From the NCBI GenBank assembly GCA_002441305.1, contig DJVT01000002.1:16335-80334 (forward strand): a DNA stretch of 64,000 bases, given 5' to 3'. Numbering within the stretch: the stretch's first letter is position 1; each line of letters begins with the position of its first letter. Positions 3,407 through 53,042 of the stretch are shown here, one piece after another. This stretch comes from Candidatus Omnitrophica bacterium UBA6249 (lineage in GTDB: Bacteria > Omnitrophota > Gorgyraeia > Gygaellales > Profunditerraquicolaceae). A model generated the notes under the pieces. That model was not told where the DNA came from. It was given only the letters and a program-made list of their open reading frames with translations, and made no database searches. Made by a program: the position numbers and the translations under genes.

Positions 3407-3674
3407 TTTTTACCTAATACAAATTAAATAAAAAATAAATTCCCCCCTTACCCCAGAATCATTTTTAATTTTGAAATCTGTTCTTGTCATCATTAATCCG
3501 TTATTATTAAAATCTTTTTAAAATTTTTTATCAAGTACTGTTCAAAAATAGTCTGGTTCTCGTCGATACTGGCAACCCGGCTATCCTTTGAGGCTTTTTT
3601 GATTTGAGGACCCGTGGCTTTGTGTCCCTAGATTTCTCTAGGTTTACCTTTTTCATCATTTCAACTTACACTTA

Positions 3675-25484: not shown

Positions 25485-25494
25485 CCTTAATAAT

Positions 25495-26727: not shown

Positions 26728-26730
26728 GAC

Positions 26731-29424: not shown

Positions 29425-29433
29425 AACTGTAAA

Positions 29434-35224: not shown

Positions 35225-36729
35225 ACACCGCTTCTTAGCTTCTCTTTATCCACCTTGCCGGATCGGTTCTTGGGAAGTTCTGCGCGAAAATCAAAGCAAT
35301 GGGGTATCTTAAAATGAGCCAGGTGCTGGCGCAGAAAATAACGCAAATCTTCTTCCAAAAGATCGCTTCCTTCCCTGCGCACCAGGAAGGCTTTAGGCAC
35401 TTCTCCTCTCAATTTATCCAGTACCCCTACCACGGCGGCCTCGGCGATATCCGGATGCTTCAGCAAAACCGACTCCACCTCCGGTTCGAAAACAATCTCC
35501 CCGCCCACCTTAATCATCTCTTTCTTTCTCCCTACGATATAAAGAAATCCTTCATCGTCGAATCTGCCGAGGTCTCCGGTATAAAACCACCCGTCGCGGA
35601 CAGTTTCACGGGTGAGCTCTTCATCCTTAAGATAGCCATCGGTTACTACCCAGCTCTTCACTGCCACTTCTCCAATCTGTCCATTCTCCAGTTTTTGCTG
35701 GCCTTCGCCAAAAATCCCTACGTCAATCCAGGGAGCGGGCCGGCCTACGCTCTCTATTTTATCCGACCCCATAGGCAAGACTACGGTAGGAGCGTTTGTT
35801 TCGGTAAGCCCCCAGCCGTTCAAAAGATAGGCCTTGGGGCAAAATTTATGGAATCTGCGCAAAGCATCGGGCGAGCTTGAAGCGCCAAAAGTCACTATCC
35901 ATCGCAAGCTGGATAAATCGAAGGTTTCAAATTCCTTCAGCTGCAGCAACGCATAATACATAGAAGGGACGATCCAAAAGAAATTTACCTTATGGCCTTG
36001 AACGTTTCTCAGGAAATCCAAAGGCATGAACCTCTCCATCAACACCATGGTCAGGCCAAAAGTAATCGTATTCTGGATATAAATCAACCCACCCAGATGG
36101 GAGAAGGGTAAGGCGCATAAAGTAACATCCCGAGAAGAAATGTCCTTATTCACGAAAAAGGCCATCGATTTCGGAGGAGCATTCAATTGCTTGTAGCTAA
36201 TCAGTACCCCTTTGGGCTTTCCCGTAGTACCGGAAGTATAAAAGACGATGGCATAATCATTTTCTTTGAGCGGGAGTCCGGAAAAATCCTGCCGGGAGCA
36301 AGAAAGCAGGTCTTCGAAATTTAAAGCACCCTCTTCCCTGCGGCGGCAGGAAATAATATGTTTCAATAAAGGCAGGTTTTCCTTAAGGCGGGAAATCGAA
36401 ACATTGGCCTTATGCTTGGTGACAAGAACCTTTGCCTCGCAATGGCTTAAACAGGAAATTATTTCATCCTCGGTAAGCATAAAATCCAAAGGGACCGCGC
36501 ATGCCCCAATCGACCAAATTGCCAAATAACTGTAAATGTATTCCGGCCAGCTGGGCAAATATATGGCCACCTTGTCTCCGGGGCTTATACCCAGATTTAT
36601 CATGTTTTGGGCCAGGGCGAAAACTTTACGCTTAAGTTCAAGAAAAGAAATTGCTTCCTGGCCAAAAAGTACAGCGGTTTTCCCGCCGTAATCCGCAGCA
36701 CATTTTTTTAGAATATTCACAACATCCAT
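35221..36729 (-). CDS. AMP-dependent acyl-CoA synthetase/ligase
   Basis: 502 aa. AMP-binding motif YTSGTTGKPKGV, plus YTGDLGRFDDEGFLYIVGRKKEMIKVGG. Confidence 0.85.
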   Translation of the reverse strand: MDVVNILKKCAADYGGKTAVLFGQEAISFLELKRKVFALAQNMINLGISPGDKVAIYLPSWPEYIYSYLAIWSIGACAVPLDFMLTEDEIISCLSHCEAKVLVTKHKANVSISRLKENLPLLKHIISCRRREEGALNFEDLLSCSRQDFSGLPLKENDYAIVFYTSGTTGKPKGVLISYKQLNAPPKSMAFFVNKDISSRDVTLCALPFSHLGGLIYIQNTITFGLTMVLMERFMPLDFLRNVQGHKVNFFWIVPSMYYALLQLKEFETFDLSSLRWIVTFGASSSPDALRRFHKFCPKAYLLNGWGLTETNAPTVVLPMGSDKIESVGRPAPWIDVGIFGEGQQKLENGQIGEVAVKSWVVTDGYLKDEELTRETVRDGWFYTGDLGRFDDEGFLYIVGRKKEMIKVGGEIVFEPEVESVLLKHPDIAEAAVVGVLDKLRGEVPKAFLVRREGSDLLEEDLRYFLRQHLAHFKIPHCFDFRAELPKNRSGKVDKEKLRSGV

Positions 36730-38216: not shown

Positions 38217-39230
38217 TTAGACCTCTTTCGCGCAAGTTCTAATTTTTACCTCTTTAAACAAAGCAAATAACCTGGTAAAAGGCACATACCATTTAGAAAG
38301 CTGCCCCAATTGGCCGCTCAATTTCATCTTGCCCTGCGTAACCGCCACAAAACAATCCAATCTGCCCAAGAAAACCTGCTCCCAGACATCCGCAGGCGCC
38401 GATATCACAAACGGAGCCTGCGCGTCAAAATCAAGCTTGATGATTTTGCCTTTTTCAAAATTGAACTTATACGCTTGTTCGCATCCGTCCATCTTTACAG
38501 CGAGGCTAACCGTTAAATCCAGCTCTCTCCCCTTCTCCCCAATAAAAGAATCTTTATTAACCAGATCCACGATCGCCTCAATATGCTCCCGGCTGAACAT
38601 GGCATAAGAAACCTGGCTCTTCTTCAAATCGTCCCTTAAAGCTGTATCCAATCCGTCTAAAATATTCTTATCGAACAAGCGCGCCAATGCCGCGCTCTTT
38701 ACCGCCTCTTCCAGCGCCTCGGTAACATCAAGCGCATCAACAAACTTGTCTGCGATCGCTATTACTCCATGATTCCTCAATACGACCAGATTACTGCTTT
38801 TCAAAGCTGCAATCACCGGGCCCGGAACGGTTACCGTAGGAGTATCCTGGTCTATTACCGGGATATCCCCCAAATAGAATTTAGTCTCAAAGCTCATCGC
38901 CTTGAGTGTCTTGACAACGGCAAAATATCCATTAATCAACGGAGGGTGGCAATGCAGGATAACCTTAGAAGGGAAATTTCTGTAGATCAGGCTATGCAAA
39001 GGCAACTCGGAACTGGGTTTTATATCCGGCATAAGGCTGTCTGCGGAAAGATCAACCTTGATTACGTCTTTTTCCGTCAACCTGCCTAATGACGAACCGC
39101 TGGAGGTAATCAGTATATGTTTTTCGCTCACCCTAACACTTAAATTTCCTGACTTGGCTACCGCCAACCCCGCTAAATGCAATTGCTTGCCTGTTTCTAT
39201 AATCTCTCTGACCGCTTCTTGTTCCAGCAC
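38217..39230 (-). CDS. Class II aldolase/adducin-family domain fused to C-terminal SCP2-like domain
   Basis: 337 aa. N-terminal ~200 aa are aldolase_II-like (AKSGNLSVRV, ILHCHPP, LRNHGVIA). The C-terminal ~110 aa, ...FVISAPADVWEQVFLGRLDCFVAVTQGKMKLSGQLGQLSKW..., fit an SCP2 sterol-carrier fold pattern. Confidence 0.7.
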   Translation of the reverse strand: MLEQEAVREIIETGKQLHLAGLAVAKSGNLSVRVSEKHILITSSGSSLGRLTEKDVIKVDLSADSLMPDIKPSSELPLHSLIYRNFPSKVILHCHPPLINGYFAVVKTLKAMSFETKFYLGDIPVIDQDTPTVTVPGPVIAALKSSNLVVLRNHGVIAIADKFVDALDVTEALEEAVKSAALARLFDKNILDGLDTALRDDLKKSQVSYAMFSREHIEAIVDLVNKDSFIGEKGRELDLTVSLAVKMDGCEQAYKFNFEKGKIIKLDFDAQAPFVISAPADVWEQVFLGRLDCFVAVTQGKMKLSGQLGQLSKWYVPFTRLFALFKEVKIRTCAKEV

Positions 39231-39231
39231 T

Positions 39232-40155
39232 CTACACCTCCAAATGAATATGTTTTGTTATCAGGCGGGCGGGAGTAACATCAAAAGCCGGATAATAAGC
39301 CTTGACCTCCCTGGGAGCAAGCAATATCCCCCGGTAAAACTTAAGTTCATTTTCAGGGCGGATTTCGATTTTTATTTCCTTGCCGCTCTTCAGTCTTGAA
39401 GGAGGCGGGCATAATACATAAAAAGGTATTTTAAAATACCTGGCAACAACGGCAATCTGGTAAGTGCCGATCTTATTCGCGATATCCCCGTTTTTAGCCA
39501 AGTGATCCGCCCCTACAATCACCTTGGTTACCTTGCCCAAAGACAGAAGATATGCCACCATGTTATCCGTGATAACAGTAACGGGGTATCCGGCCTTCAT
39601 AAGCTCCCAGGCAGTCAAACGCGACCCCTGGAGATACGGGCGCGTTTCCGTGACATAAAAACTGATTTTTTTGGCATCTTTCCTGGCAAATTCCGCTATC
39701 AAAGGCAACAAACCGCTGACGTTGCAATGCGTAAGAATAACATCGCCGTCCTTAAGTAATCCGGCCGCCTGAAACGCCTGTTTCATCCGGCTCCTCTTGA
39801 GCCTCTCCAGGAAATCCGGAATGCTTTTTTCCAGCGGGATCCCGCGCTTTTCCCAATCAAGCACCATATCGGTCAAAACCTTGAACGAAAGCGTGGGACG
39901 GGTGGAATTAATCGCCTTGGCTACCTTAGCCAAATTGACCTTCTGCATCCTGCTTAAAAGAAAAGTATACATAACCAAGAGCACCTGCCCAACCGCGCGC
40001 GTTTTCATGTCCTTGATTGCCGCGCAGGACTGGCGGTAACCCCTGGATTTTATATAAACCTCTCTCTGGGGGAGCCTTGTTTCATCTAATATATAAATAA
40101 CCTTCCCCTTCATGCGCACCGGCCAAAATAAAGGAGAAAGACCCCCCGTTTTCAT
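39232..40155 (-). CDS. mtnA: eIF-2B/MtnA-family sugar-1-phosphate isomerase (methylthioribose-1-P isomerase-like)
   Basis: 307 aa. IVGADHLAKNGDIANKIGTYQIAVVARYFKIPFYVLCP is the family hallmark. It is shorter than typical MtnA. Confidence 0.6.
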   Translation of the reverse strand: MKTGGLSPLFWPVRMKGKVIYILDETRLPQREVYIKSRGYRQSCAAIKDMKTRAVGQVLLVMYTFLLSRMQKVNLAKVAKAINSTRPTLSFKVLTDMVLDWEKRGIPLEKSIPDFLERLKRSRMKQAFQAAGLLKDGDVILTHCNVSGLLPLIAEFARKDAKKISFYVTETRPYLQGSRLTAWELMKAGYPVTVITDNMVAYLLSLGKVTKVIVGADHLAKNGDIANKIGTYQIAVVARYFKIPFYVLCPPPSRLKSGKEIKIEIRPENELKFYRGILLAPREVKAYYPAFDVTPARLITKHIHLEV

Positions 40156-40901
40156 CTGCCCTCCATCCTCTTGACCAATTCCAACGATATATTGATCAAA
40201 TTGCTTTCCGCCATGTAATAAAGAGGATTCATGAACCCCATCTCTCCGGTAATCACATTATCGCTGACCGCCAGGATAGAGCCAGCTTTGATATTGTATG
40301 TCTGGCAAATCGTCAAAATAGTAGAAGACACCATATCTACCGCTTTCGCCCCCTCGGCACGCTTAGCTTCGATAATATCCCGGGTCTCGCGCAGCAATGC
40401 GTCAGTAGTCCAGGCCTTGCCGCGGTGCACACTCAACCCCATTCCCTTGGCTATTTCGAATAATAAATCGGATATCCCCTTATCTGCGGCAGTCTTGAAG
40501 TCATCCTTGACATAATAAGGAGTCACTCCGTCTCCCCGGATAACCTCATCAACAACGAATAAATCCCCGACCTTCATAGAATCGTCGAGCGCCCCGCAGG
40601 TGCCTATGCGGATTATATTCTGTATGCCCGCATTGCACATTACTTCCGTAGTAATTGACGTATCGGTGGAAAACCTCCCCCCGTTTATAGCGGTGACCTT
40701 GATTCCGTCGAAGGCCCCGGTATACATAGTATATTCCATAAAAGAAAAATTGCGCACCGGATTTTCGATTTTCTTCATCAATACGTCCAGCCTGTCACGC
40801 GGTCCGGGAACGATTGCGTACTTCCCTACATCCTGGGGCCTGAGCTGAACCATTTGTGTCAAATCCTTGCCTGTCAAGTGTACATCTTTTTTCATCTGCA
40901 T
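40152..40901 (-). CDS. PNP_UDP_1-family nucleoside phosphorylase
   Basis: 249 aa. ...IIRIGTCGALD..., ...DMVSSTILTI..., ...SDNVITGE... fit purine/uridine/MTA phosphorylase family 1. It is the first gene of the operon. Confidence 0.75.
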   Translation of the reverse strand: MQMKKDVHLTGKDLTQMVQLRPQDVGKYAIVPGPRDRLDVLMKKIENPVRNFSFMEYTMYTGAFDGIKVTAINGGRFSTDTSITTEVMCNAGIQNIIRIGTCGALDDSMKVGDLFVVDEVIRGDGVTPYYVKDDFKTAADKGISDLLFEIAKGMGLSVHRGKAWTTDALLRETRDIIEAKRAEGAKAVDMVSSTILTICQTYNIKAGSILAVSDNVITGEMGFMNPLYYMAESNLINISLELVKRMEGR

Positions 40902-41634: not shown

Positions 41635-42546
41635 TTAGAGACCGAAGATTTCTCTCAAATTCCCGCCCAATATGCCGCTTTTATCTTCCTCGGACAGGTC
41701 TAAATCCTTTACCGCTTTTAACCCAGGTTGAATATCTTGTTTGGCCGGCCAGTCGCTTCCCCATAAAATACGCTTCGGCCCCATAAGTTCAAGCGCTAAG
41801 GAAAAATTTGCCGTGCTGGCGTCCCCGCTGGTATCCACATAAATATTCCTGAGGTACTCGGAAGGCAGCCCCTGCAGGTCTTTAACAAAATTAATCCCGC
41901 GCAGCATCCGGTAGGTGGCGTCAAAACGCTGTTTTAAGTAACATACCGCTCCGCCGAAATAAGGGAAAACGAATTTTACCTTCGCATAGCGCCTTAATAT
42001 ATCCGACATCAGCAATTTTCCGGCGGAGATCGTGGTGTCGAACACGTATTCCACTACTGGCGTAAGCAGGGGATCCTTCACGCGTTCGAAACCTATTGGA
42101 TTTACAATCTGCGGGTGCACAAAAATGGGGATGGAATGCTCGGCGCAATATTCATATACGGGAAGAAACATCCTGTCGTCAAGATATATCCCGTTGTAGC
42201 TTGAAGCCAGGGAAACAGCTCTAAACCCCAACTCTTCGCTTGCCCGCTTCAATTCCCCAAGCATATCGATGGAGTTATCCACCGGCATCACTGCCGCCCC
42301 GATAAACCTCCCGGGGAAACGCTTGAGTATCAAAGAAACATTGTCGTTATATATATGCGCGACTTGGCTGATACTGCCTAATTTCAAATGGGCATCGGAC
42401 GTAGGATAGCTCAATACGGCTGCATCTATGCCTTCCCTGTCCATGGACTTAACCTGTGATTCGATATCCCCCCACCCTTTATGGAAAAAATGGGCATTGG
42501 AGATAATTTCCTCCGGCAACCAGTGGCTATGCGCGTCAATCAACAT
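41635..42546 (-). CDS. Amidohydrolase-2 family metal-dependent hydrolase
   Basis: 303 aa. MLIDAHSHWLPEE...; the TIM-barrel amidohydrolase_2 pattern runs to ...LWGSDWP. Confidence 0.8.
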   Translation of the reverse strand: MLIDAHSHWLPEEIISNAHFFHKGWGDIESQVKSMDREGIDAAVLSYPTSDAHLKLGSISQVAHIYNDNVSLILKRFPGRFIGAAVMPVDNSIDMLGELKRASEELGFRAVSLASSYNGIYLDDRMFLPVYEYCAEHSIPIFVHPQIVNPIGFERVKDPLLTPVVEYVFDTTISAGKLLMSDILRRYAKVKFVFPYFGGAVCYLKQRFDATYRMLRGINFVKDLQGLPSEYLRNIYVDTSGDASTANFSLALELMGPKRILWGSDWPAKQDIQPGLKAVKDLDLSEEDKSGILGGNLREIFGL

Positions 42547-42959
42547 CAGTGTTCAGTGCTCCTTAATATGCGTCCGGACATCTCTTCTTCATAGAGATCC
42601 CTAATCCTCTCCAGGCCTCGCCTGCCAAGCTCTTTTACTATAAGTTTTTCTACCGCATTAAGTTTAAAATCAAGAAAAATAAACTCGGGGTTGATTTTTT
42701 TGCCGCGGTATTTCAGTTCCAAGCAAGCCTTTTCTTTATCCGAAATATACTGGCGGTATTGATTAATGAATTTTTCTAATGCGGTTTTGTCGTGCGGCAG
42801 ATAAGCGCCAAGCAGCTGATTTTCTATCTCGGAAAGCAGATCTTTGTCTATGTCTATCTGGGTAAACTTGCGCTCATATTTATCGAATGCTTCTTTAGTC
42901 GTCTTATACAGCCATAGGAGATAACGCCTTCTTAAGTTTTTTATGTCCTGATTATTCAT
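42546..42959 (-). CDS. Hypothetical protein (137 aa, helical, K/E-rich)
   Basis: ORF only; coupled to the downstream amidohydrolase (stop/start share base 42546). No recognisable motif. Confidence 0.5.
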   Translation of the reverse strand: MNNQDIKNLRRRYLLWLYKTTKEAFDKYERKFTQIDIDKDLLSEIENQLLGAYLPHDKTALEKFINQYRQYISDKEKACLELKYRGKKINPEFIFLDFKLNAVEKLIVKELGRRGLERIRDLYEEEMSGRILRSTEH

Positions 42960-43018
42960 TGCTGTTCTCCTTTCGGGACTGTGCCGCAGAAAGCGTTCCG
43001 GTTATGATGTTTAACGGC

Positions 43019-43636
43019 CTATTCTTTTACCAGTTCAACCGTATCGAAGTACAACGTTCCGCTGGAGCCGGCGAGCGGCTCGAATTGAAACACCTTTATG
43101 GGAAAATCCAGCTTCCAGTTCTGCTCGGCATTCTCCGGCTGCCAATCGTCGCGCAGCACAAACTTGTCGAAACTGCAGACTACCCGCTTCCACCCTTTAA
43201 AGTCGTCTTGTGCGATAAAACGCCAGATCTCTCCGCCGTTATCTTTGATATCAAAAGCGATTTTTTCTTTCGAATCGGTACCATAGACATAAAAAGAAAT
43301 TGCGTTATACTCCTGCCATTTTATATCGGAAGGGCTAACCTGCCAATCAGCGTTCTTCGCATCCAGCCCGCTGCCTTTAGCCACATAAATATACCCCCCT
43401 TCCACGGCATCATAAACCACCTTGAGAGAACTTTCTCCGCTGTTTTTTATATCGGTATCCCTGGTAACCGTGACTGCAGACCCGTTCCCGGCTCCAAAAT
43501 CAACCGTACCCTCCGGCCCGGAAGTCACGGAAACCTCAAAGTCATCGATTAATGTCCCATTATCGGCAAAACAGGCAACGGAAATCCCCAGAAATATTGC
43601 TGCCATGAAAAATATTTTTTTCATCGATACCTCCAT
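43019..43636 (-). CDS. Secreted protein with carbohydrate-binding-module/CIA30-like beta-sandwich pattern
   Basis: 205 aa. Signal peptide MKKIFFMAAIFLGISVACFA. DDFE...SLKVVY...W..YNAISFYVYG...FKGWKRVVCSFDKF...LYFDTVELV resembles CBM11/CIA30-type domains (pattern-level call). Confidence 0.5.
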   Translation of the reverse strand: MEVSMKKIFFMAAIFLGISVACFADNGTLIDDFEVSVTSGPEGTVDFGAGNGSAVTVTRDTDIKNSGESSLKVVYDAVEGGYIYVAKGSGLDAKNADWQVSPSDIKWQEYNAISFYVYGTDSKEKIAFDIKDNGGEIWRFIAQDDFKGWKRVVCSFDKFVLRDDWQPENAEQNWKLDFPIKVFQFEPLAGSSGTLYFDTVELVKE

Positions 43637-43666
43637 TTTATATTCCTTTTAACAAGCGCGGCGAAT

Positions 43667-44443
43667 TCATTTGCCGGGATGTTGCTGCTTAAAGGGGATT
43701 ACCGGAGCCGTCCACGGAGTCCTTTGGTTAATTACCGAAATCTCCAGAGGGCAAACGTTTGCCGGTACGGTTAAAGCAAAACGCACCGCATCCTCGATAG
43801 CCTGCGTGCTCATAAGGCGGGAGGTGTCGTTGCTGATCTCTTTGAGTTTGCCGGTCAGGTCTGTATCGGTTACCCCGGGCATAATGGAAGTTACTTTAAT
43901 CCCGTGGTCGCGCAGTTCCCAGAATAGCCCTTTGGAAAAAGCCTTAAGCCCCACCTTAAGAGAGCTGTAGACTATGAAATTCCTGGGAAGAGGGTCGCAC
44001 AATGTCGACCCTGAAACCATGTTTATGATTGCCCCGCTTTTATCTTTAATCATATCTCCGATCACCAGCCGGATAAGCCTGACATACCCGAGATAATTCG
44101 TATAAGCGAGCCTTTCGATATCCTCCAACGGTTGATCCTGAAAAGGATACTGGCTTGATACTCCGGCATTATTGATCAATACGTCTATCTTGGTAAATTC
44201 TTTCTTGGCTGACGCCACCAGGTTCTCCAAGTCGCTTAATTTGGTAACGTCGCAAACAACCGGAAGCACCCGCACATTGAACCGCTCTGCCAATTCCTTT
44301 GCGGTTTCCTCAAGGGGGCCCTTCGTACGTGCCCCGATAACCAGATTCATCCCTAAAGCTGCCGCGGTGGATGCAAGCGCCTTGCCTATTCCCCGGCTGG
44401 CTCCGGTAACAACCGCAGTCCTGCCCTTCAATTCCAACCCCAT
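43667..44443 (-). CDS. Short-chain dehydrogenase/reductase (possible polyketide ketoreductase)
   Basis: 258 aa. TGASRGIGKA, NNAG, catalytic YSSLK. Confidence 0.85.
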   Translation of the reverse strand: MGLELKGRTAVVTGASRGIGKALASTAAALGMNLVIGARTKGPLEETAKELAERFNVRVLPVVCDVTKLSDLENLVASAKKEFTKIDVLINNAGVSSQYPFQDQPLEDIERLAYTNYLGYVRLIRLVIGDMIKDKSGAIINMVSGSTLCDPLPRNFIVYSSLKVGLKAFSKGLFWELRDHGIKVTSIMPGVTDTDLTGKLKEISNDTSRLMSTQAIEDAVRFALTVPANVCPLEISVINQRTPWTAPVIPFKQQHPGK

Positions 44444-44452
44444 AATCCCTCC

Positions 44453-45574
44453 TTATTTTTGACTAAGCAAAAACCTTCCTGTAAACAAAATAGCAAGCAG
44501 CATGAAACCAAAACAGAGAAACGCCATAGAAAAACTTTTATGCATAAGAAAACCGCCCAAACCTGCGCCTACCCCCCCGGAGATAAAACGCACGCCGCTG
44601 TTTAACCCCGCGGCCTCATTCAAAAATCCCTCGGGTAAATCCGTGAGCAGGGTCGCCAGGGCGGCATGGTTGAAGGTCCAGCTTAGCCCCCAAAAAACCA
44701 TCACAATAGCCAAAGGCCCCAGTGACATCCTTGCTAAAAACAAACAAGCGCAGGCAATCATTCCAACCGCCCCCAAACAAGCCACCTTCCCCCGTCCTAT
44801 CTTATCCGATAGGCGGCCTCCCCAGAGTTCTCCAAATACCCCGCTGAAACTGGTCAGGGTAATCAAAATACTTATATAAAACTGCTCCAGGAAAAGCTGG
44901 GTGGAAAAATATACGCCAAGCCATTGCTGTATCCCGTGGTAAACCAGGCTTATAGAAAATATATATATGAACAACCCGATTGCCTTCCTGCTCCTGAACA
45001 ACAAGGGATATCCAAAACGGATCTTTTGTTCCCCCGCTTCAATATCCGGCATATAAAAATACATAAAAACCCAAAGAGCAAAACCAAAACAGGCGGGAAT
45101 TACGAATATTGCACGCCACGGGATTACCCCGCTCAAAAGCAGCCCCGCCAGGGAAGAAACAAAAGAAGAGGCGAAAAAGACGCCTATGTGCCCGCCGCGC
45201 GCATCCTTACGCGCGTATCTGGATATAAGTATAATCCCAAGCGGGATTACTGAAGCCCCAAAAATTCCCATCAGGAACCGGGCGATAAAGAGCATCCGGA
45301 TATGCCCGGCGAACCCAGCCATAAGGTTCGACAGAGAAAATAAGAAAATACAGGTCAGCTCTATTTTTCTGGCGTTGAATAACCTTACCAGCGGTCCATA
45401 GAAAAGGGCGGCCAAACCATAGGGGATCATATACAACCAGATTATGTTCCCGGTCACGAACTGAGAAAGAGCGAAAGAGGAAGCGATCGAAGGAACTAAT
45501 GCGGAAGAAGCGGCAACATTGAAAGAAAGAACCGCCCCTTCCAGGCAGAGAATAAAAAACAAAATCCTTTTCAC
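44453..45574 (-). CDS. MFS transporter
   Basis: 373 aa, ~11-12 TM helices. MFS loop motif-like ...GRLSDKIGRGK.... Confidence 0.85.
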   Translation of the reverse strand: MKRILFFILCLEGAVLSFNVAASSALVPSIASSFALSQFVTGNIIWLYMIPYGLAALFYGPLVRLFNARKIELTCIFLFSLSNLMAGFAGHIRMLFIARFLMGIFGASVIPLGIILISRYARKDARGGHIGVFFASSFVSSLAGLLLSGVIPWRAIFVIPACFGFALWVFMYFYMPDIEAGEQKIRFGYPLLFRSRKAIGLFIYIFSISLVYHGIQQWLGVYFSTQLFLEQFYISILITLTSFSGVFGELWGGRLSDKIGRGKVACLGAVGMIACACLFLARMSLGPLAIVMVFWGLSWTFNHAALATLLTDLPEGFLNEAAGLNSGVRFISGGVGAGLGGFLMHKSFSMAFLCFGFMLLAILFTGRFLLSQK

Positions 45575-46011
45575 CTTCTGACTTCTTTTTCGATTACTTC
45601 TTTAAATATTTTCAGGTTGTGTTGTGAACCCTCGTTGATAAAACCCTCTATTTGCTTATCGTCGAATTTAGCCTTTTTATCCATGTGAAAATGCTGTATC
45701 CATGTCAATTCCACCCCGTCTTCCCGGAGAGTATAAAGCCAGATAATTTTCATGTATTCAAAAGGAAACTTTGGATCCTGACGCTCGGCGTAAGTAAAGC
45801 ACCTGTCTTTAAAAAGAAGCCGCCATGAAACCCAGCTTTTACCGTCTTCGTCCGTAAGACGAAAAGTTATCTTATTGGAGTTGCGTTCAAGCAATTCGGC
45901 ATTTTTATATTCCTGGCCGAATAATTCCGTCCATCTGGGGATATCATTGGATATATCAAACACCAGATCGTAAGGGGCGTTAATCAATATCGAATTGCAG
46001 GTATGTCCCAT
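45571..46011 (-). CDS. SRPBCC-fold polyketide cyclase/aromatase-like protein
   Basis: 146 aa. ...INAPYDLVFDISNDIPRWTELF...; the size and pattern match monodomain ARO/CYC (Polyketide_cyc) proteins. Start overlaps the MFS gene. Confidence 0.65.
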   Translation of the reverse strand: MGHTCNSILINAPYDLVFDISNDIPRWTELFGQEYKNAELLERNSNKITFRLTDEDGKSWVSWRLLFKDRCFTYAERQDPKFPFEYMKIIWLYTLREDGVELTWIQHFHMDKKAKFDDKQIEGFINEGSQHNLKIFKEVIEKEVRR

Positions 46012-46044
46012 CTTGCCTCCCGGTTTTCATTTAACAGAGCATGG

Positions 46045-46848
46045 CTATTGCTCAAAAAGGGCAACTACCCTGGACCAGGCCGCCCCGGTTCCCTTTATCC
46101 TCACAGGAAAACAAATAATCTTGAATCCGGAACCGGGAAGCTTATCCAAATTTGCCAGCCTCTCTATATGGATAAACTCCCTTTTCCGTCCATAGAAATG
46201 TGCGGGATAAAAATTCTTGGGGTCTTTTGTCTTCAAAAATTCTCCTAACATGAATTTATACGGCCGGTCGATCCCCATGGTATCGACGCCAAATACTTTT
46301 ACTCCGGAGTTAAGCAAGAAATCTATGGCGGAAGTCGCAACTCCGGGGTAGTCGGAAAAATACTTTGGCCCGCCGTATAATTTGTCCGCCCCCGTACGGA
46401 ACAAAACAATATCCAGCGGCTTGATCTGGTATCCTATCTTTCCAAGCGCGGATTTGACATCATAGACATTGATCGTCTCATCCGGCTTCTTATGTGTCAT
46501 ATCAAGACATACCCCGTCATGATAACAATACTCCAGAGGGATCTCATCCGCAGTCTTCGAAGAACGGTTTTCCGTCCTTGAACCGTAATGAAAAGAGTAA
46601 TCCAGATGGGTGCCTATATGCACGGGAGAATGCACAATCTCCAAGGAAAGAAACTCCTCATCGGGAAGCTGTTCTTTTTTTATTATGCGCATACCCAGGG
46701 CGTATTTGACCTTTCCTAAAAGGGTCTTGCCCATAATCACACGGTTAAACTTGGATACCCCCTCTTTATGCCCGACACGTTCGATATCAACCTTATGTAC
46801 TTCAAAAGCTTTCTCGTCGATGGGCAAACTTAAATCGATAATCTTCAT
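46045..46848 (-). CDS. Cyclase-family protein (PF04199-type, kynurenine-formamidase fold)
   Basis: HSPVHIGTHLDYSFHYG fits HxGTHxDxxxH. ATG 46848 overlaps the ACP stop (ATGA); the track start 46863 is the alternative. Confidence 0.75.
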   Translation of the reverse strand: MKIIDLSLPIDEKAFEVHKVDIERVGHKEGVSKFNRVIMGKTLLGKVKYALGMRIIKKEQLPDEEFLSLEIVHSPVHIGTHLDYSFHYGSRTENRSSKTADEIPLEYCYHDGVCLDMTHKKPDETINVYDVKSALGKIGYQIKPLDIVLFRTGADKLYGGPKYFSDYPGVATSAIDFLLNSGVKVFGVDTMGIDRPYKFMLGEFLKTKDPKNFYPAHFYGRKREFIHIERLANLDKLPGSGFKIICFPVRIKGTGAAWSRVVALFEQ

Positions 46849-47081
46849 TTTGTCATCTTGCATTGAATGCTGCTGGCGATTTCTTCTATTGTCGAATTCT
46901 TAGTGACCTCTTTTACGTCTAACTTTACCCCAAACTCCTTTTCCAGGGCAATCACCGATTCCACCATTTCGGTCGAATCCACCCCTATACTGGAGGATAA
47001 GGATTCTCCGTCCTTTAATTCTTCGATTTTTATTTTTAGCAGACTTGCCAGCGTTTCCTTCACTTTTGTCTTTATATCCAT
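46845..47081 (-). CDS. Acyl carrier protein
   Basis: 78 aa from ATG 47081 (RBS GGAGGGGG). MDIKTKVKETLASLLKIKIEELKDGESLSSSIGVDSTEMVESVIALEKEFG, with the phosphopantetheine-Ser motif DS. Confidence 0.75.
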   Translation of the reverse strand: MDIKTKVKETLASLLKIKIEELKDGESLSSSIGVDSTEMVESVIALEKEFGVKLDVKEVTKNSTIEEIASSIQCKMTK

Positions 47082-47127
47082 ACCCCCTCCAGCCCCTTTG
47101 CTTAGGCGTTTATGCTTTATTGTTCGA

Positions 47128-48591
47128 CTATATCTGTACTTCCCCCCCTGCTGCAGCTGCCTCCCATTTGCCAACCCCGTCCATTACGTCCTTGAAACAA
47201 AGTTTGGCGAGCGGGTCGAAATTGCTTTCCATTATACGGTTTATCCTGCCGGGCTTGGAAAAGAACTCGCGCATACACCATGAACCAAGCCTGCCCAAAT
47301 CCTCTGTGGTCAGATAATCGGTAGGTATTACCGGATGCAGGAAATCCCACGTACTGAAATCAACCTTCTTGGGATCGACCCAGTTCTTCTTGAGGGATAT
47401 CCTCCACATCGGGGAGTTCGGCGCCGGGGTAACATAACCTATCCACAACACATCCGGGTCAGCCTGGTCGGCAAATTCAAACCTCTGTTTTATGATTTCT
47501 TCGGTGTCGTAATCAAACCCCATCATAATGTCAGCTACGACTGCGATATCGTTCTTGCGCAGGATCTCAATCGTCTTTTTGATCTGCTCTATAGTCGTGC
47601 CCTTGGCTATCTTTTTCAACTCTGCCTGAGTGGTAACCTCTATGCCGAATACCCCCATGATCAAACCGACTTCTTTCATCAAAGGAACCACCGATTCGCA
47701 ATTTACCCAATCCACCGCTCTGCCCAAAGAAAACCATTTGGTCGGAATCCCTTTTTCTTTCTTAAGCTCGCAGAATCTCTTTACGCGTTCCGGATCAACG
47801 TTAAAATTGTCATCTTGTATGCCTACGACTTGTACGCCATATTTCTTGTGCAAAAGCTCCAGCTCCTCAATAACGCGTTCGGGGGATTTAGCGCGCCACT
47901 TCAAGAAATCCGAAGGGTGGCGCGGATCAAATTGGTCCCATTCGTAACAAAATGTGCAGGCTGAAGGACAGCCGCGCGAAGTGACCATGTCCACAAAAGG
48001 CTTCCAGTAAGTATGCCCGACATATTTATCCATGGGAAACAGGTCGTAAGCGGGCAAAGGAAGTTTATCCAGATCGGTCATTAACGGCTTATGCGGCCCC
48101 ATGACAATCTCCCCGTCTACGCGGACAGTCACCCCTCCGATATCTTTCAGGTTCTTCTTCTTATCTATCGCCTCAATCAGGTCGGCAAATGATTCCTCTT
48201 CGCCCATAACTACAAAATCCACCGCGGGATTCTCTTCGAGAGTCGGTACGGGCATAGCTGAATACCATAAGCCGCCCAGAATTATTTTTACCGAAGGAAG
48301 CTCTTTCTTGATTCTCTGGGAAGCCTCACGGAAATGACGCAATACCCCATACCCTCCGTAACCGTGTATCTGTTCTCCCATAACTACTATATCCGGATTC
48401 TTGGCTTTCACCTGTTCGACAAGCTGATCCATAGGGATCTCCAGGGCCCTCCCGTCTATGACTGAAACGTCCGAATATCCTCGTTCGCGTATATAGGCTG
48501 CCCAATGCGCATATAGCTGGTTCGGCGATCTATGTATACCGTGAGTTGCCCAGGCTCCTACCTTAGGCATTACGAATAATATCTTCATCAC
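47128..48591 (-). CDS. B12-binding-domain radical SAM enzyme (class B radical SAM)
   Basis: 487 aa. N-terminal cobalamin-binding-like Rossmann region (KILFVMP...DIVVMGEQ...KIILGG) plus radical SAM cluster SRGCPSACTFC (CX3CX2C). Confidence 0.85.
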   Translation of the reverse strand: MMKILFVMPKVGAWATHGIHRSPNQLYAHWAAYIRERGYSDVSVIDGRALEIPMDQLVEQVKAKNPDIVVMGEQIHGYGGYGVLRHFREASQRIKKELPSVKIILGGLWYSAMPVPTLEENPAVDFVVMGEEESFADLIEAIDKKKNLKDIGGVTVRVDGEIVMGPHKPLMTDLDKLPLPAYDLFPMDKYVGHTYWKPFVDMVTSRGCPSACTFCYEWDQFDPRHPSDFLKWRAKSPERVIEELELLHKKYGVQVVGIQDDNFNVDPERVKRFCELKKEKGIPTKWFSLGRAVDWVNCESVVPLMKEVGLIMGVFGIEVTTQAELKKIAKGTTIEQIKKTIEILRKNDIAVVADIMMGFDYDTEEIIKQRFEFADQADPDVLWIGYVTPAPNSPMWRISLKKNWVDPKKVDFSTWDFLHPVIPTDYLTTEDLGRLGSWCMREFFSKPGRINRIMESNFDPLAKLCFKDVMDGVGKWEAAAAGGEVQI

Positions 48592-48618
48592 TCCCTCCCT
48601 TTTTATCTATTTCTCCGT

Positions 48619-49848
48619 TTAAGCTTTTTCAACTACAAGCGCCGCGTTGATTCCTCCCCGGCCGCGCGAGATAACCAGGCATTTATTTATTTTACGCTCC
48701 CGCGCCTGCTGAGAAACATAGTCGATTCCCCCCGCAACCGGATCTTCGAGATTTAAGGTCGGGGGAACCAATCCATGCTCCATAGACAAAATTGCAATAA
48801 TCATATCCAAAGCCCCCGATGCCCCCAGCAGATTACCAAACATGCTCTTCGGACAACTGGCGGGGATACCCGGTAAAGCATCCCCAAAAACTATCTTGAG
48901 CGCATTGATCTCGGAATCATCCCATATATCGACGGCTAAACCATCCAGGCTGATATAATCTATATCCCGTGGATTCACCTTAGCATCTTCAAGTGCAGTA
49001 TTTATCGCCCTGGCGAGCTCTTTCCCGTCCGAAGAAGGATTTATCCTGTCCACTCCGTCACAAGATGTCCCGTATCCGCTTATATAACCCAGGATATTCG
49101 CCCCGCGCTGCCTGGCCCTTTGCACGCCCTCCATAACTACTATTCCCGCCCCTTCGCCAATAACGAAACCACTGCGCTGCCTATCAAACGGCCGGTATAC
49201 AGCTTCAGGGTTCTGGTTGTTTACCGACAGCGCCCCATAGGTATTGCAGCACAATAATGCATACGGGGAAACCGGGGCTTCCATGCCTCCGCCTAAAATC
49301 ATATTCAGCTTGTTTTTGCATAATACTTTCCTGGCGTAGCCCAAAGCCATCAGAGATCCCGCCCGGTCCGCAACTACCGTTTTGCTGAAACCTTTGATCC
49401 CGTAATAAATCGACACCTGCCCCTGAGGAGCCGCGGGAAACCAGGCAGAGGCCATATAAGGAGAGACCCCTTCCCTGCCTTCCAGGTACAAATCCCTTAA
49501 TTCAGTCTCCGCATAAAGCCATCCCCCGATCGCATTCCCCAGAAAAATCCCCATAAGATTGGGATCCTCGTTTTTTATATCTATGCCTGCATCCTGCAAT
49601 GCCAGCTCCGAAGCAACCAGGGCCATATGTGAAAAAGCGTCTATTTTCTTAAGCAGCCTTTCGGATATGTGGCTGTATTTTTCCAGATCGTCTATCTGCC
49701 CGGCAATGCGCGAAGGGTATCTTAAGGCGTCAAAACGGCTTATCTCCTTTATGAAAGAACGCCCGCTTTTGATGTTCGCCCAAAACTGGCGTTTGCCTAT
49801 CCCCGAAGGGCTGACTACCCCTATGCCTGTAACCGCTATCTTTTCCAT
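48619..49848 (-). CDS. Type II PKS chain-length factor (KS-beta), active-site position = Arg
   Basis: 409 aa. AWFPAAPQGQVSIYYGIKGFSKTVVADRAGSLMALGYARKVL aligns with the CLF signature AWF.AA..GQ.SI..G..G....VAEQAGGLDAL. There is no catalytic Cys (R162, codon 49365..49363). The His boxes are degenerate (SLDGLAVD, MFGNLLGASG). ATG overlaps the KS-alpha stop. Confidence 0.8.
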   Translation of the reverse strand: MEKIAVTGIGVVSPSGIGKRQFWANIKSGRSFIKEISRFDALRYPSRIAGQIDDLEKYSHISERLLKKIDAFSHMALVASELALQDAGIDIKNEDPNLMGIFLGNAIGGWLYAETELRDLYLEGREGVSPYMASAWFPAAPQGQVSIYYGIKGFSKTVVADRAGSLMALGYARKVLCKNKLNMILGGGMEAPVSPYALLCCNTYGALSVNNQNPEAVYRPFDRQRSGFVIGEGAGIVVMEGVQRARQRGANILGYISGYGTSCDGVDRINPSSDGKELARAINTALEDAKVNPRDIDYISLDGLAVDIWDDSEINALKIVFGDALPGIPASCPKSMFGNLLGASGALDMIIAILSMEHGLVPPTLNLEDPVAGGIDYVSQQARERKINKCLVISRGRGGINAALVVEKA

Positions 49849-51110
49849 TATTCACCGAACCTTTTAAATACGATGGATGAATGTATGCCGGAAAAACCAC
49901 TGCTGGTCTTAAGAATCAAATTTACCTCCTTGGCAACCGCCTGATTGGGCACATAAAAGAGATCGCATTGCGGATCCTTTTCTTCCTGGTTGATAGTAGG
50001 AGGCAGGATATTCTTTTCGAAAATCATACTTGTCATGGTCATTTCAATGGCGTTTGCGGCGGCCAAAGGATGCCCGATCATGGATTTAAAAGAGCTTATC
50101 GGAAGCTTATAAGCGTAATCCCCGAAAACCGCCTTGTAAGCGCTCGTCTCAAAAATATCGTTCATACGCGTGCTTGAACCGTGCGCGTTGATATAATCTA
50201 TATCTTCGGGTTTTACGGAAGAATCTTTCAAGGCTAAAGTAATGCAATTTTCCATAGCCCGGCCGTCGGACGGCAAATCGGTCATATGGAAAGCGTTGCA
50301 GCTGGTGCCAAAACCCAACACTTCGCAATAAATCCGGGCTTTACGACGCAAGGCGTGTTCCAGTTCCTCCAATATCAGGATGCCTGCCCCTTCGCCAAGC
50401 ACAAACCCGTCGCGCTTATTGTCAAACGGGCGCGATGCCTTTTGCGGTTCGTCATTATGTACCGAAAGCACATTTACTACGTCAAAGGCTCCGAAAGTTA
50501 TCGGGGTAAGCGGCGCTTCCGCGGCCCCGCATACCATAATATCCTGCTCTCCGTCCTGGATTGATTCAAGCCCAAAACCCAAAGAATCAGTACCTGCGGT
50601 GCACCCCGTGGATATAGTATTGCAGATACCTCTCAGGCCAAAACGAGAGCTTATCTCTATTGAAGGGGTATTGAACATAGCCGCATCATACAGGTCCGGG
50701 CGCACCAAAGCGGGATTGATCGGTTTTTTGCCGTCCTCGGTCACCAGGGCAAACTCTTCTTCCATGTATTTTGTCCCGCAAATGGCATTGGCGAGGCAAA
50801 CGCCTGCCCTCCGGGGGTCTTCTTTGGAAAAAACCAAACCGCTGTCTTCGATCGCCATCATGCCGGCCGCCAGACCGAATTGCACGTAACGGTCCATGCG
50901 CATGACCTCTTCGTGTTTAAGGCCTAATTTAAAAGGATCAAAATCCCTTACCTGGGCTGCAATTTTTGTATGAAAAACAGAGACATCGAAACCGTCCACC
51001 AGGCTTATTCCGGACTTCCCTTTTGAAAACGCATCCCAGGCGTTAATCTTCCCTATCCCGTTGGGGGATATAACTCCTATACCAGTTATAACAACGCGCC
51101 TTTTATCCAT
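49848..51110 (-). CDS. Type II PKS ketosynthase alpha (KS-alpha)
   Basis: 420 aa. Active-site Cys in ISTGCTAGTDSLG (C170). His boxes INAHGSSTRMND and SMIGHPLAAA. Closest in pattern to type II PKS KS-alpha (STGCTSGLDSVG). Confidence 0.85.
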   Translation of the reverse strand: MDKRRVVITGIGVISPNGIGKINAWDAFSKGKSGISLVDGFDVSVFHTKIAAQVRDFDPFKLGLKHEEVMRMDRYVQFGLAAGMMAIEDSGLVFSKEDPRRAGVCLANAICGTKYMEEEFALVTEDGKKPINPALVRPDLYDAAMFNTPSIEISSRFGLRGICNTISTGCTAGTDSLGFGLESIQDGEQDIMVCGAAEAPLTPITFGAFDVVNVLSVHNDEPQKASRPFDNKRDGFVLGEGAGILILEELEHALRRKARIYCEVLGFGTSCNAFHMTDLPSDGRAMENCITLALKDSSVKPEDIDYINAHGSSTRMNDIFETSAYKAVFGDYAYKLPISSFKSMIGHPLAAANAIEMTMTSMIFEKNILPPTINQEEKDPQCDLFYVPNQAVAKEVNLILKTSSGFSGIHSSIVFKRFGE

Positions 51111-51139
51111 TTTACGTAATACTCCGCATTATAAACACC

Positions 51140-51751
51140 TTAACCCTTAACCTTATCATCTACACGGCTGACCTTGAATATCACATTTCCCCCGTCCGGA
51201 CAGGTAACCGTATCTATCGAATCCGGATTATCCATAAAAAAGAACTTCGCCCCGAAATTCAAGGCAAATAGCGCCGGAAATGCCGTATGGAACGCCGCTC
51301 CGCAAAACCCGGGGATGCATTTTAACCCCTGGGTCTCCCATTTATCCCCCACTTTATAGCCAAAGCTGCATTTCCCTTTTGCCTTGACAACCTCTATTAC
51401 CATTTTTTTGGGATTTGGACCTTTGTGGTTTGGGTCGCGGGGGATAACCTGCAGGTTTCCTTCTTTATCCAGGATCTCCGCTTTAAACTCCAGTTTTCCG
51501 CCGTCGGGACAGGTGACCGAAAGCGAACGCTGGTTATCGCGAAAGCCGAACCGGGCTCCAAAACTCAAGGCGTATATGGTCGGGAAAAGCGCATGCGCAA
51601 GCCCCAGGCAAAAATGTTCAGGGGGATGCGTAAAATCCTCCAGATAAATTTCGTCTCCTATTTTGTACCCATGGTAACAAGTTCCGAAAACCCCGGTTAC
51701 CGTCAATTTCAGTTTCGGAAAAGGCGTCTTTACTTTCTTCTCTCCGCTCAT
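51140..51751 (-). CDS. Tandem-duplicated TIGR04076-like Cys-motif protein
   Basis: Two ~90-aa modules. Module 1: CYHGYKIGDEIYLEDFTHPPEHFCLGLAHALFPTIYALSFGARF...VTCPDGGKLEFK. Module 2: CSFGYKVGDKWETQGLKCIPGFCGAAFHTAFPALFALNFGAKF...VTCPDGGNVIFK. The family assignment is from memory. ATG 51751 overlaps the upstream stop; the track start is 51766. Confidence 0.55.
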   Translation of the reverse strand: MSGEKKVKTPFPKLKLTVTGVFGTCYHGYKIGDEIYLEDFTHPPEHFCLGLAHALFPTIYALSFGARFGFRDNQRSLSVTCPDGGKLEFKAEILDKEGNLQVIPRDPNHKGPNPKKMVIEVVKAKGKCSFGYKVGDKWETQGLKCIPGFCGAAFHTAFPALFALNFGAKFFFMDNPDSIDTVTCPDGGNVIFKVSRVDDKVKG

Positions 51752-52761
51752 TTTATCTCTCCGCATCCTCCCACTTTACCCATAAGTTCCTCTTTGCTAA
51801 AAAATCTCTTGGTGTCCTCAACCTGGTGCACCAACCCCACCAATATCCTGTTCAGGGGAGCATCAACACCGTTCTTTTCGGCAATACGCAGGAATTCCCC
51901 GTTTATATAATCAATCTCCGATTTCCGGCCGCGCATAATACTCTGCAGTATGGAACCGTAAAGCGGCTCGCTGCTTAAATTCTTCATGGTCTGGGATAAG
52001 ATTGCGGAGGCCTGAGGAACGGGCAGGGAAGCCAGCCCGGTGATCTTTTCCAGCGGGAAACCCGGCAAAGAAACAAGTTTTAATCCCGATTTAGCGATAA
52101 CTTCAAGACCTTCCTTCCATATAGCCACACTTATACAACTGATCTCAGGATCGCTAAAAACCTCCTGCATGCTCTTCCCTAATATCGCCGGCAGGCAATT
52201 ATTGGCATTGGCGAATATTTTTAATAATTTCATCCCCTTGATACTTTCCGATACAACAACGGGGAAGGACCCGCTCAATATCTCAGTTATGCGGGACAAT
52301 TCTTCCGGCACCTTCTCTTCAAAAGAATAACCGAGGACCCATGGGCCTTCAAAATTATGTACCAGCCTGGCTTCCCCCAGATAGGTGGAACCAAACATAA
52401 CCACGCTGGAAAACACATTCTCCTTAGACAGGCATCCGGCAGCGATCTGATCCGCCTGCACGCCATTTTGCACGGTAAGCACCAGAGAGCCGCGGATATA
52501 ATTTATATTATCGCTGATAGCGTATTGTAAATCCTGGGTCTTGGTAGTTAAAATAACCAGATCCGGGGAATAAGGCAGTTTCTCGTAAACATCCAGCTCC
52601 ACCCTGAAATCACCCCGTACTCCGGATATACAAAGGCCGTTTTTCTTTATCGCGGACACGGAACTCCCGTGTCCGGCGACAACCACATTTTTACCCTTTA
52701 ACTTCAGGTATGCCGCCGTAAGGCAGCCGATGGCCCCGGCACCTATGATCCCTATGCGCAT
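51748..52761 (-). CDS. Ketopantoate-reductase (ApbA/PanE) family oxidoreductase
   Basis: 337 aa. MRIGIIGAGAIGCLTAAYL Rossmann N-terminus and a family-typical C-terminal helical domain. Confidence 0.75.
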   Translation of the reverse strand: MRIGIIGAGAIGCLTAAYLKLKGKNVVVAGHGSSVSAIKKNGLCISGVRGDFRVELDVYEKLPYSPDLVILTTKTQDLQYAISDNINYIRGSLVLTVQNGVQADQIAAGCLSKENVFSSVVMFGSTYLGEARLVHNFEGPWVLGYSFEEKVPEELSRITEILSGSFPVVVSESIKGMKLLKIFANANNCLPAILGKSMQEVFSDPEISCISVAIWKEGLEVIAKSGLKLVSLPGFPLEKITGLASLPVPQASAILSQTMKNLSSEPLYGSILQSIMRGRKSEIDYINGEFLRIAEKNGVDAPLNRILVGLVHQVEDTKRFFSKEELMGKVGGCGEIK

Positions 52762-52763
52762 AA

Positions 52764-53042
52764 TCAGGCCTGCCCCTTTGGAAATCCGTACTTCTTATAG
52801 TCGAAACCGTTTTGCTCCAGGAGCCTGACCATCATGCTGTAAAAAGGCGAAGGGACATCAGAGAAGAATGCGGAAATCACGTCTTCCTCTTCCACGCGCA
52901 AAGACTTGCGGGCGGCCGCATTGGCCTGCGCCTGTTTCCTTACCACCGACTCGGTGATCCTGCGATGGAACACCGGGATCCTTGAAATTAAAACATTAAA
53001 TTTTTCTTCGGTCTTTACATCCCAATCCATTGCTTGCCCCAT
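52764..53042 (-). CDS. PCP_red-like small protein (protochlorophyllide-reductase C-terminal-type domain)
   Basis: 92 aa. WDVKTEEKFNVLISRIPVFHRRITESVVRKQAQANAAARKSLRVEEEDV fits the W..eAe..l..iP.f.R......e..A pattern of PF08369. Confidence 0.55.
   Translation of the reverse strand: MGQAMDWDVKTEEKFNVLISRIPVFHRRITESVVRKQAQANAAARKSLRVEEEDVISAFFSDVPSPFYSMMVRLLEQNGFDYKKYGFPKGQA

Follow-up and report, generated by a model that had tools for sequence, protein, structure and literature searches.

We considered a stretch of 64,000 nucleotides from Candidatus Omnitrophica bacterium UBA6249 (contig DJVT01000002.1, positions 16,335 to 80,334 of the forward strand), hereafter the window, and in particular the open reading frame (ORF) at 48619..49848 on the minus strand. 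This ORF encodes the ketosynthase-beta (KS-beta) subunit, or chain-length factor (CLF), of a non-reducing (aromatic) type II polyketide synthase (PKS). In the column of the catalytic cysteine of ketosynthases (KS) it carries an arginine, Arg162.

The CLF is a protein of 409 amino acids (aa) with the full-length KS (thiolase-like) fold, as seen from the Pfam domains PF00109 and PF02801 and from the AlphaFold2 (AF2) model, which has a pLDDT of 91 and TM-scores of 0.96 to FabF and 0.92 to the actinorhodin CLF (PDB 1TQY chain B, 1tqy_B). Directly upstream lies an intact KS-alpha gene (49848..51110, minus strand), whose product of 420 aa has the catalytic Cys (STGCTAG) and both catalytic His (NAHGSS and IGHPLA). 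The two genes are coupled: the TAA stop codon of the KS-alpha gene shares one base with the ATG of the CLF gene (TAATG), and the KS-to-CLF offset of -1262 is kept in related loci. The CLF has neither the catalytic Cys nor the His-His pair, and the operon encodes an acyl carrier protein (ACP) and aromatic-polyketide cyclases, with no dehydratase and no enoyl reductase. A neighbour-joining (NJ) tree, a crude method, groups the protein with CLFs, and not with KS-alpha or FabF. Both the KS and the CLF of the window score best against FabF. The CLF score against the NCBIfam family fabF (TIGR03150), 358.9 bits, is under the equivalog cut-off of 493.75, and the protein thus falls outside FabF (KAS II). 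A sequence-only reading of the same DNA had named it a CLF-type KS paralogue, and the fold, the loss of the triad, the coupling to the KS gene and the operon all bear this out.

Arginine 162 and the lost catalytic triad

The codon of Arg162 is CGG at 49365..49363 on the minus strand. Around it the minus strand reads gta gtt gcg gac CGG gcg gga tct ctg atg gct ttg, that is V-V-A-D-R-A-G-S-L-M-A-L (VVADRAGSLMAL). Three alignment methods agree on the column. Firstly, phmmer against the FabF chains of PDB sets 'tvvadragslmalg' over 'ttvtacatatnsig' without gaps, so that R162 falls on the catalytic Cys of FabF. Secondly, BLASTP against the actinorhodin CLF, a query first verified to be 100% identical to 1tqy_B, sets KTVVADRAGSLMALGYARKV over SALVAEQAGGLDALGHARRT, gapless for more than 60 residues on both sides, with R162 at Gln161. 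Finally, MAFFT and a profile search of relatives place R162 in the same column. Arginine at CLF position 162 is thus real, and an error of register, which the sequence-only reading had named as the finding that would overturn its placement of an Arg in the Cys/Gln column, is ruled out by these concordant gapless alignments. The CLF signature quoted there, VVAEQAGGLDAL, differs trivially from the actual actinorhodin sequence, LVAEQAGGLDAL; the column itself had been aligned correctly.

The whole Cys-His-His triad is replaced in the window CLF: Cys by Arg162, the first His by Asp302 (codon 48943..48945, minus strand) and the second His by Asn339 (48832..48834, minus strand). The corresponding residues of the actinorhodin CLF are Gln161, Asp297 and Arg332. 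In the AF2 model R162 stands at the start of a helix that follows a strand, which is the nucleophile elbow of KS enzymes. Lysine K334 is kept. According to the alignment, the FabF motif SFGFGG reads SRGRGG, both Phe being replaced by Arg; these two Phe are gating positions. Since the whole triad is lost, the best reading is that the protein is catalytically dead and performs neither condensation nor canonical decarboxylation.

The actinorhodin CLF is 36% identical to the window CLF over the full length and likewise has Asp at the first-His position and RGR replacing FGF of FabF. It differs in having Gln161 in place of Arg, Arg332 in place of Asn, and F/T/F at the gatekeeper positions discussed below. 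The window protein thus departs from the canonical 'chain initiation factor' CLFs: it has Arg instead of Gln and, although Asp302 is present, Asn at position 339.

The operon and its conservation in Omnitrophota

The PKS operon spans 41635..53042 on the minus strand and is syntenic in 83 loci (L001-L083), with proteins 76-88% identical. A genome scan, one genome per GTDB species, yielded at least 576 genomes with a relative, of which the best 80, all of Omnitrophota lineage and with CLFs 76-86% identical to that of the window, were taken for the analysis of synteny and codons; distant relatives were found by other searches. Together with three loci from contig look-ups these 80 make up the set of 83, nearly all of which are labelled Omnitrophota. 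Many loci (L009, L010, L014, L026, L032, L039 and others) are titled 'uncultured Planctomycetales' despite CLFs 76-86% identical to Omnitrophota proteins, which looks like an inconsistent taxonomic label in submissions of metagenome-assembled genomes.

The operon starts with an ORF of 92 aa without a significant family match (52764..53042, minus strand as all genes of the operon; 61 of 61 loci). Weak DUF2621 matches were observed for its same-position homologue in L002 and for small ORFs near the PKS genes in L085. It is followed by an ApbA/PanE-like NAD(P)H reductase gene (51748..52761; 64/64 loci) and, immediately upstream of the KS gene, by a gene encoding a tandem TIGR04076 protein of 208 aa (51140..51766; 71/71 loci). 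TIGR04076 domains are uncharacterised and Cys-rich, and the window protein has two copies. The KS and CLF genes come next. Between the CLF and ACP genes lies a gene for a B12-binding radical SAM enzyme (B12-rSAM; 47128..48591), found in all 61 covered loci; its best match is the anaerobic cyclase BchE, at 213 bits, far under the cut-off. In L086, a relative at 61% identity, the B12-rSAM gene is upstream of the ApbA gene, and in L085 it is not beside the PKS genes.

The ACP (46845..47081; 56/56 loci) has 78 aa and the motif GVDSTEM, and its orthologues match PF00550. Two cyclase genes follow. One encodes a PF04199 'Cyclase' (46045..46863; 56/56 loci), presumably of the OxyN/DpsY-type polyketide cyclase family, and the other an SRPBCC protein with Pfam polyketide cyclase/dehydrase matches (45571..46011; 52/52 loci), which we take to be of the TcmN aromatase/cyclase type. 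A gene for a transporter of the major facilitator superfamily (MFS; 44453..45574) is a variable insertion, present in 32 of 48 covered loci, between the SRPBCC cyclase gene and that of a short-chain dehydrogenase (SDR), a probable ketoreductase (43667..44443; 44/44 loci). The remaining genes encode a CBM_11-like protein of 205 aa (43019..43636; 29 of 44 loci by tblastn, annotated in L001 and L002), a protein of 137 aa without a family match (42546..42959; 41/43 loci) and an Amidohydro_2 family protein, a possible decarboxylase (41635..42546; 40/40 loci). With the exception of the MFS, CBM_11-like and 137-aa genes, every gene of the operon is present wherever the contig reaches. The operon is flanked by methionine-salvage-type genes (PNP_UDP_1, IF-2B, class II aldolase), after which comes a gene for an aldehyde dehydrogenase (38217..40901, minus strand). 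These neighbours recur in L002 and L086.

Domain searches in the window, L001 and L002 found no dehydratase (FabZ/FabA) and no enoyl reductase in the operon, and therefore it is a non-reducing type II PKS with a complete minimal PKS. The presence of a B12-rSAM gene directly after the CLF gene, and the best scores of both subunits being to FabF, might be taken to indicate a lipid system of a FabF/FabF-mut-like pair instead, similar to the ladderane cluster of anammox bacteria, which has a KS, a dead KS, an ACP and a B12-rSAM. However, the operon has two polyketide-type cyclases and one ketoreductase, whereas the anammox pathway is fatty-acid-like and has FabZ. The window CLF scores 262 bits to the actinorhodin CLF, compared to 208 and 185 bits to the chains of PDB 9S5H, which we take to be the anammox amxFabF-mut pair. 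Moreover, seven gene families are common to the window operon and an aromatic PKS cluster of Clostridium described below. The content of the operon speaks against a ladderane-like system, and a lipid pathway of this kind is highly improbable.

The mean identities across the loci are 81% for KS, 81% for CLF, 85% for the radical SAM enzyme and 80% for SDR, compared to 79% for AccA and 67% for IF-2B, which are housekeeping neighbours. With such conservation the operon resembles a near-core trait passed on vertically more than a secondary-metabolite cluster of patchy occurrence. Candidatus Omnitrophica already appears in a catalogue of type II PKS as a phylum with KS-CLF pairs (PMC10132072). In practical terms little is gained here beyond a correct annotation of this conserved type II PKS operon of Omnitrophota.

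Arginine 162 is unchanged in all 120 of the nearest 90%-identity clusters, which are 80-100% identical to the window CLF and which, where the source is named, come from Candidatus Omnitrophota/Omnitrophica. R162, D161, D302 and N339 are invariant in 83/83 loci. The arginine is encoded there by all six codons (CGG 37, AGG 24, CGC 13, CGT 4, CGA 3, AGA 2). The sequence-only reading had left open whether homologues conserve the arginine, and these close relatives do so without exception. The counts in the clusters, and in the loci with six codons, indicate that R162 is under purifying selection. As 43% of the CLF columns are invariant among the Omnitrophota loci, conservation at larger distances is the stronger evidence.

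Arginine and glutamine at position 162 in other chain-length factors

A search of 1.84 billion 50%-identity representatives yielded 27 nearest stand-alone CLF-like proteins, 36-57% identical to the window CLF. Arginine is in column 162 in 17 of them, within the motif D/E-R-A/S-S/G, and also in a fused KS-CLF protein. In the remainder the column holds Lys, Thr, Ala, Ser, Met, Ile or Cys; Gln occurs in none of the 27. A profile of the distant Arg-type proteins retrieved 117 proteins, of which 104 have Arg, and scores 432 bits to FabF compared to 363 bits to the actinorhodin CLF. Arginine is kept in at least six phyla, in proteins with overall identities of 36-57%. Members of Arg-type clusters come from Streptomyces resistomycificus (Q70DX1), Clostridium beijerinckii, C. 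puniceum and Ktedonobacter racemifer, and further from Paenibacillus, Sorangium, Archangium, Leptolyngbya and Rhizonema. The K. racemifer KS-CLF has been expressed (bioRxiv 10.1101/2020.05.18.102780). The window CLF shares the motif of this clade (VADRAGS, the same motif being found in P0389, P0128 and P0400), is closer to FabF than actinorhodin-type CLFs are, and has TcmN-type and OxyN-type cyclases encoded alongside.

In the bootstrapped NJ tree all proteins without the Cys (plus P0165) fall together with support 82, and the stand-alone CLFs with support 88. Nearly all supported subclades contain Arg, as does the fused KS-CLF outgroup. The Gln-type of actinorhodin is nested with Ser- and Ala-types; the deep nodes have bootstrap values under 30. 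As judged from these sequences, Arg162 is a signature residue of a broad, old, FabF-like and mostly non-actinobacterial CLF clade, and not a local oddity. The Omnitrophota protein adds to the already known Arg-type, FabF-like CLFs. No published comment on Arg at this CLF position was found in the literature searched, which covered only part of the key papers.

Such persistence bears on another explanation of the arginine, that it has no role and is kept only by shared ancestry. Many CLF columns are invariant among the Omnitrophota loci, as noted above, and some lineages have Ser, Met, Lys, Thr, Ile or Ala instead of Arg, both of which fit such an explanation. On the other hand, six codons were observed with zero amino acid changes in 83 species-level loci, and the residue persists across the phyla at the identities given above. 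We therefore regard the absence of a role as very unlikely.

Two of the Arg-type proteins come from producers of characterised aromatic polyketides. P0389 (UniRef Q70DX1, S. resistomycificus), whose UniRef cluster is also annotated as 'ketosynthase chain-length factor', is very probably RemB, the resistomycin CLF. Like the window CLF, it has Arg in the column (RTFVADRASG), W/A/L at the gatekeeper positions and a KS partner that groups near FabF. It differs in that both catalytic His are kept in place of Asp302 and Asn339, and in its actinomycete host. P0357, which represents the RemB cluster, has about 41% identity to the window CLF. The rem cluster is not known to have B12-rSAM or TIGR04076 genes. 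RemA and RemB have been shown to form a heterodimer (PMC6638757).

P0128 (C. beijerinckii / C. puniceum, the clostrubin producers; also P0386) is very probably ClrB. It is 43% identical to the window CLF and has Arg in the column (KTTVADRASG), with the triplet at positions 162/302/339 being R/E/H compared to R/D/N in the window. The Clostridium cluster (L084) shares with the window operon the KS (47% identity), the CLF (43%), TIGR04076, the ACP, the PF04199 cyclase (45%), the SRPBCC protein (43%) and the Amidohydro_2 protein (34%). In this cluster TIGR04076 is fused to the ACP (L084:11260-11787), and a second TIGR04076 copy is at L084:15656-15946. This points to the TIGR04076 protein as an unrecognised accessory component of this PKS type. 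The Clostridium cluster has in addition ketosynthase III (KSIII), phosphopantetheinyl transferases (PPTases) and hydrolases, and it is without the B12-rSAM, SDR and ApbA genes of the window.

The sequence-only reading had presumed a conserved Gln in CLFs, which is overstated. A profile of the actinorhodin CLF and two relatives returned 120 actinorhodin-type CLFs (P0437-P0554), in which the position is occupied by Gln in 60, Gly in 36, Ala in 20, Ser in three and Glu in one; in the CLF clusters nearest to that of the window Arg is the commonest residue. In all 120 actinorhodin-type CLFs the first His is replaced by Asp and the second by Arg, and none has Arg at 162. A decarboxylase role of the Gln was reportedly proposed by Bisang et al. 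in 1999, and the need for it is said to have been questioned by Dreier and Khosla in 2000 and in the 1TQY structure paper. Textbooks explain type II PKS priming by way of this Gln, and half of the sampled actinorhodin-type CLFs are without it.

Dead KS partners without Gln are known outside actinobacteria also from AntE, the CLF of the Photorhabdus anthraquinone system (PDB 6SMO/6SMP), and from amxFabF-mut of anammox bacteria. The site holds Asp in AntE (PMC6638757, S2 Fig legend) and Val or Thr in the FabF-mut of anammox bacteria (bioRxiv 10.64898/2026.05.19.726425). The anammox pair decarboxylates malonyl-ACP only as a heterodimer (same preprint). The heterodimers of AntE and amxFabF-mut work, and therefore Gln is dispensable for a working heterodimer. 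Both proteins are more distant from the window CLF (195 bits to 6smo_B, 208 bits to 9s5h_B) and have other residues at the site. If a large and phylogenetically broad share of CLFs carries Arg, Gln is suited neither to diagnosing CLFs nor to predicting starter chemistry in genome mining.

Candidate role of Arg162

The reading we favour, and hold to be probable, is that of a dead CLF of FabF-like type in which Arg162 is a structural partner of Asp302, the protein acts in the heterodimer and in setting the chain length, and priming is left to KS-alpha. It is close to one of the two options named in the sequence-only reading, that of a purely structural CLF. Arg162, in the first turn of the 'nucleophile' helix, would occupy what remains of the active site, its positive charge paired with Asp302 and perhaps also with Asp161. 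The salt bridge between Arg162 and Asp302 would stabilise a closed, inert pocket. In the actinorhodin-type CLFs an equivalent Arg would come from the second-His position, freeing position 161 for Gln, Gly or Ala. Chain initiation would proceed by decarboxylation of malonyl-ACP by KS-alpha, and the job of the CLF would be to form the heterodimer and to control chain length.

In KS enzymes the side chains of the triad converge on one point. Because of this convergence and of the residue patterns at the three positions, a single Arg-Asp pair may fill the dead active site. Among the Arg-types, position 302 is Asp or Glu in 99 of 104 proteins, and none has Arg at 339. A Ser-type clade (two members of which are named Nitrospirota), with the triplet S/N/N, is nested in the R/D/N clade with bootstrap 86, and P0155 (M/N/N) is sister to P0194 (R/D/N) with bootstrap 100. 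In these two lineages the loss of Arg162 is thus accompanied by a change of Asp302 to Asn; the Lys-types keep Asp. The Ser-type relatives are 50-53% identical to the window CLF, one variant having Cys/Asn/Asn. Their operon (L085:7127-12202) consists of ApbA, two small ORFs, KS, CLF, ACP, cyclase and SRPBCC genes. Taken alone among the 50%-identity representatives, the covariation of 162 and 302 is ambiguous, since Asp302 is found together with Thr, Ala, Ser or Lys at 162 as well, and the pattern is informative only after position 339 and the actinorhodin-type sample are added.

Several observations weigh against a structural Arg-Asp pair. The probable RemB and the K. racemifer CLF are Arg-types that keep His/His, and other Arg-types have Ala or Asn at 302; because some Arg-types lack an acidic residue there, the conservation of Arg cannot depend on Asp302 alone. 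Conversely, Thr- and Ala-types keep Asp302 with Arg at neither 162 nor 339. The mutual exclusion of Arg162 and Arg339 is essentially one deep split, phylogenetically non-independent, in a part of the NJ tree where bootstrap values are under 30. Finally, the identification of P0128 with ClrB and of P0389 with RemB follows from species, cluster content and UniRef names, and not from the sequences of the original papers.

A catalytic role of Arg162 was considered as well. The guanidinium group would bind the carboxylate or thioester of the malonyl unit and promote decarboxylation of malonyl-ACP, as an analogue of the role ascribed to Gln. Such a role would agree with the very deep conservation of Arg across phyla and with K334 being kept, and the probable RemB and the K. 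racemifer protein, in which the two His and the Lys are all preserved, could have a decarboxylase site. However, both His are replaced (D302, N339) in 83/83 Omnitrophota loci, the gating Phe pair of SFGFGG is replaced by Arg, an orthologous-looking operon (L085) has Ser/Asn/Asn, and heterodimers with Val/Thr or Asp at the site still prime. A catalytic arginine is thus unlikely.

The sequence-only reading had further suggested that the absence of Gln means a different priming chemistry, with a non-acetate or externally supplied starter unit. An AMP-binding enzyme is indeed encoded in the window at 35221..36729, and a KSIII gene accompanies the Arg-type CLF of Clostridium. However, the AMP-binding gene is about 5 kb past the operon, beyond the methionine-salvage genes, and does not adjoin the operon in L001 and L002. 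No KSIII, acyltransferase or CoA ligase gene was found in the operon conserved across the 83 loci. Arg-type CLFs occur in the producers of resistomycin and clostrubin, the clostrubin chain is acetate-labelled (PMC4685789), and half of the sampled actinorhodin-type CLFs also lack Gln. The suggestion is therefore unsupported, and an unusual starter unit is quite improbable. The absence of starter-unit genes from the operon, the non-syntenic position of the AMP-binding gene and the acetate labelling of clostrubin are the reasons why priming is assigned to KS-alpha in the reading with a structural Arg162.

The coupling of the two genes and the residues at the gatekeeper positions suggest that the CLF pairs with KS-alpha and sets the chain length. 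Residues 109, 112 and 116 of the actinorhodin CLF are the chain-length gatekeepers. The corresponding residues of the window CLF, W110/A113/L117, are the same as in the probable RemB (W/A/L), the probable ClrB having W/G/L and the actinorhodin CLF F/T/F. The resistomycin and clostrubin pathways have been placed in or next to the C20 clade. As the window residues match those of the probable RemB and are near those of the probable ClrB, one may reasonably guess at a chain of about C20.

A more tentative extension concerns the order of events. Arg may be ancestral at the dead nucleophile position of CLFs; a single buried Arg-Asp pair would then have persisted throughout CLF evolution, and in the crown group of actinobacteria its Arg would have shifted to the position of the second His. 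We consider this conceivable, the balance being somewhat against it. If it were true, the 'chain initiation' Gln would be a late lineage-specific add-on, and the Omnitrophota enzyme would represent the original design.

Two other regions of the window were also noted. A c-di-GMP-I-GGC riboswitch was found at 3567..3657 on the minus strand (69 bits, gathering score 59), about 160 nucleotides upstream of an ORF of at least 1135 aa (1..3406, minus strand). This ORF starts at 3406, runs off the start of the window and encodes an N-terminal hydrophobic segment. The region 24558..31581 of the plus strand encodes a MoxR-type AAA ATPase and a DUF58 protein, followed by an ORF of 897 aa without a Pfam match and an ORF of 715 aa with weak Big_2 matches.

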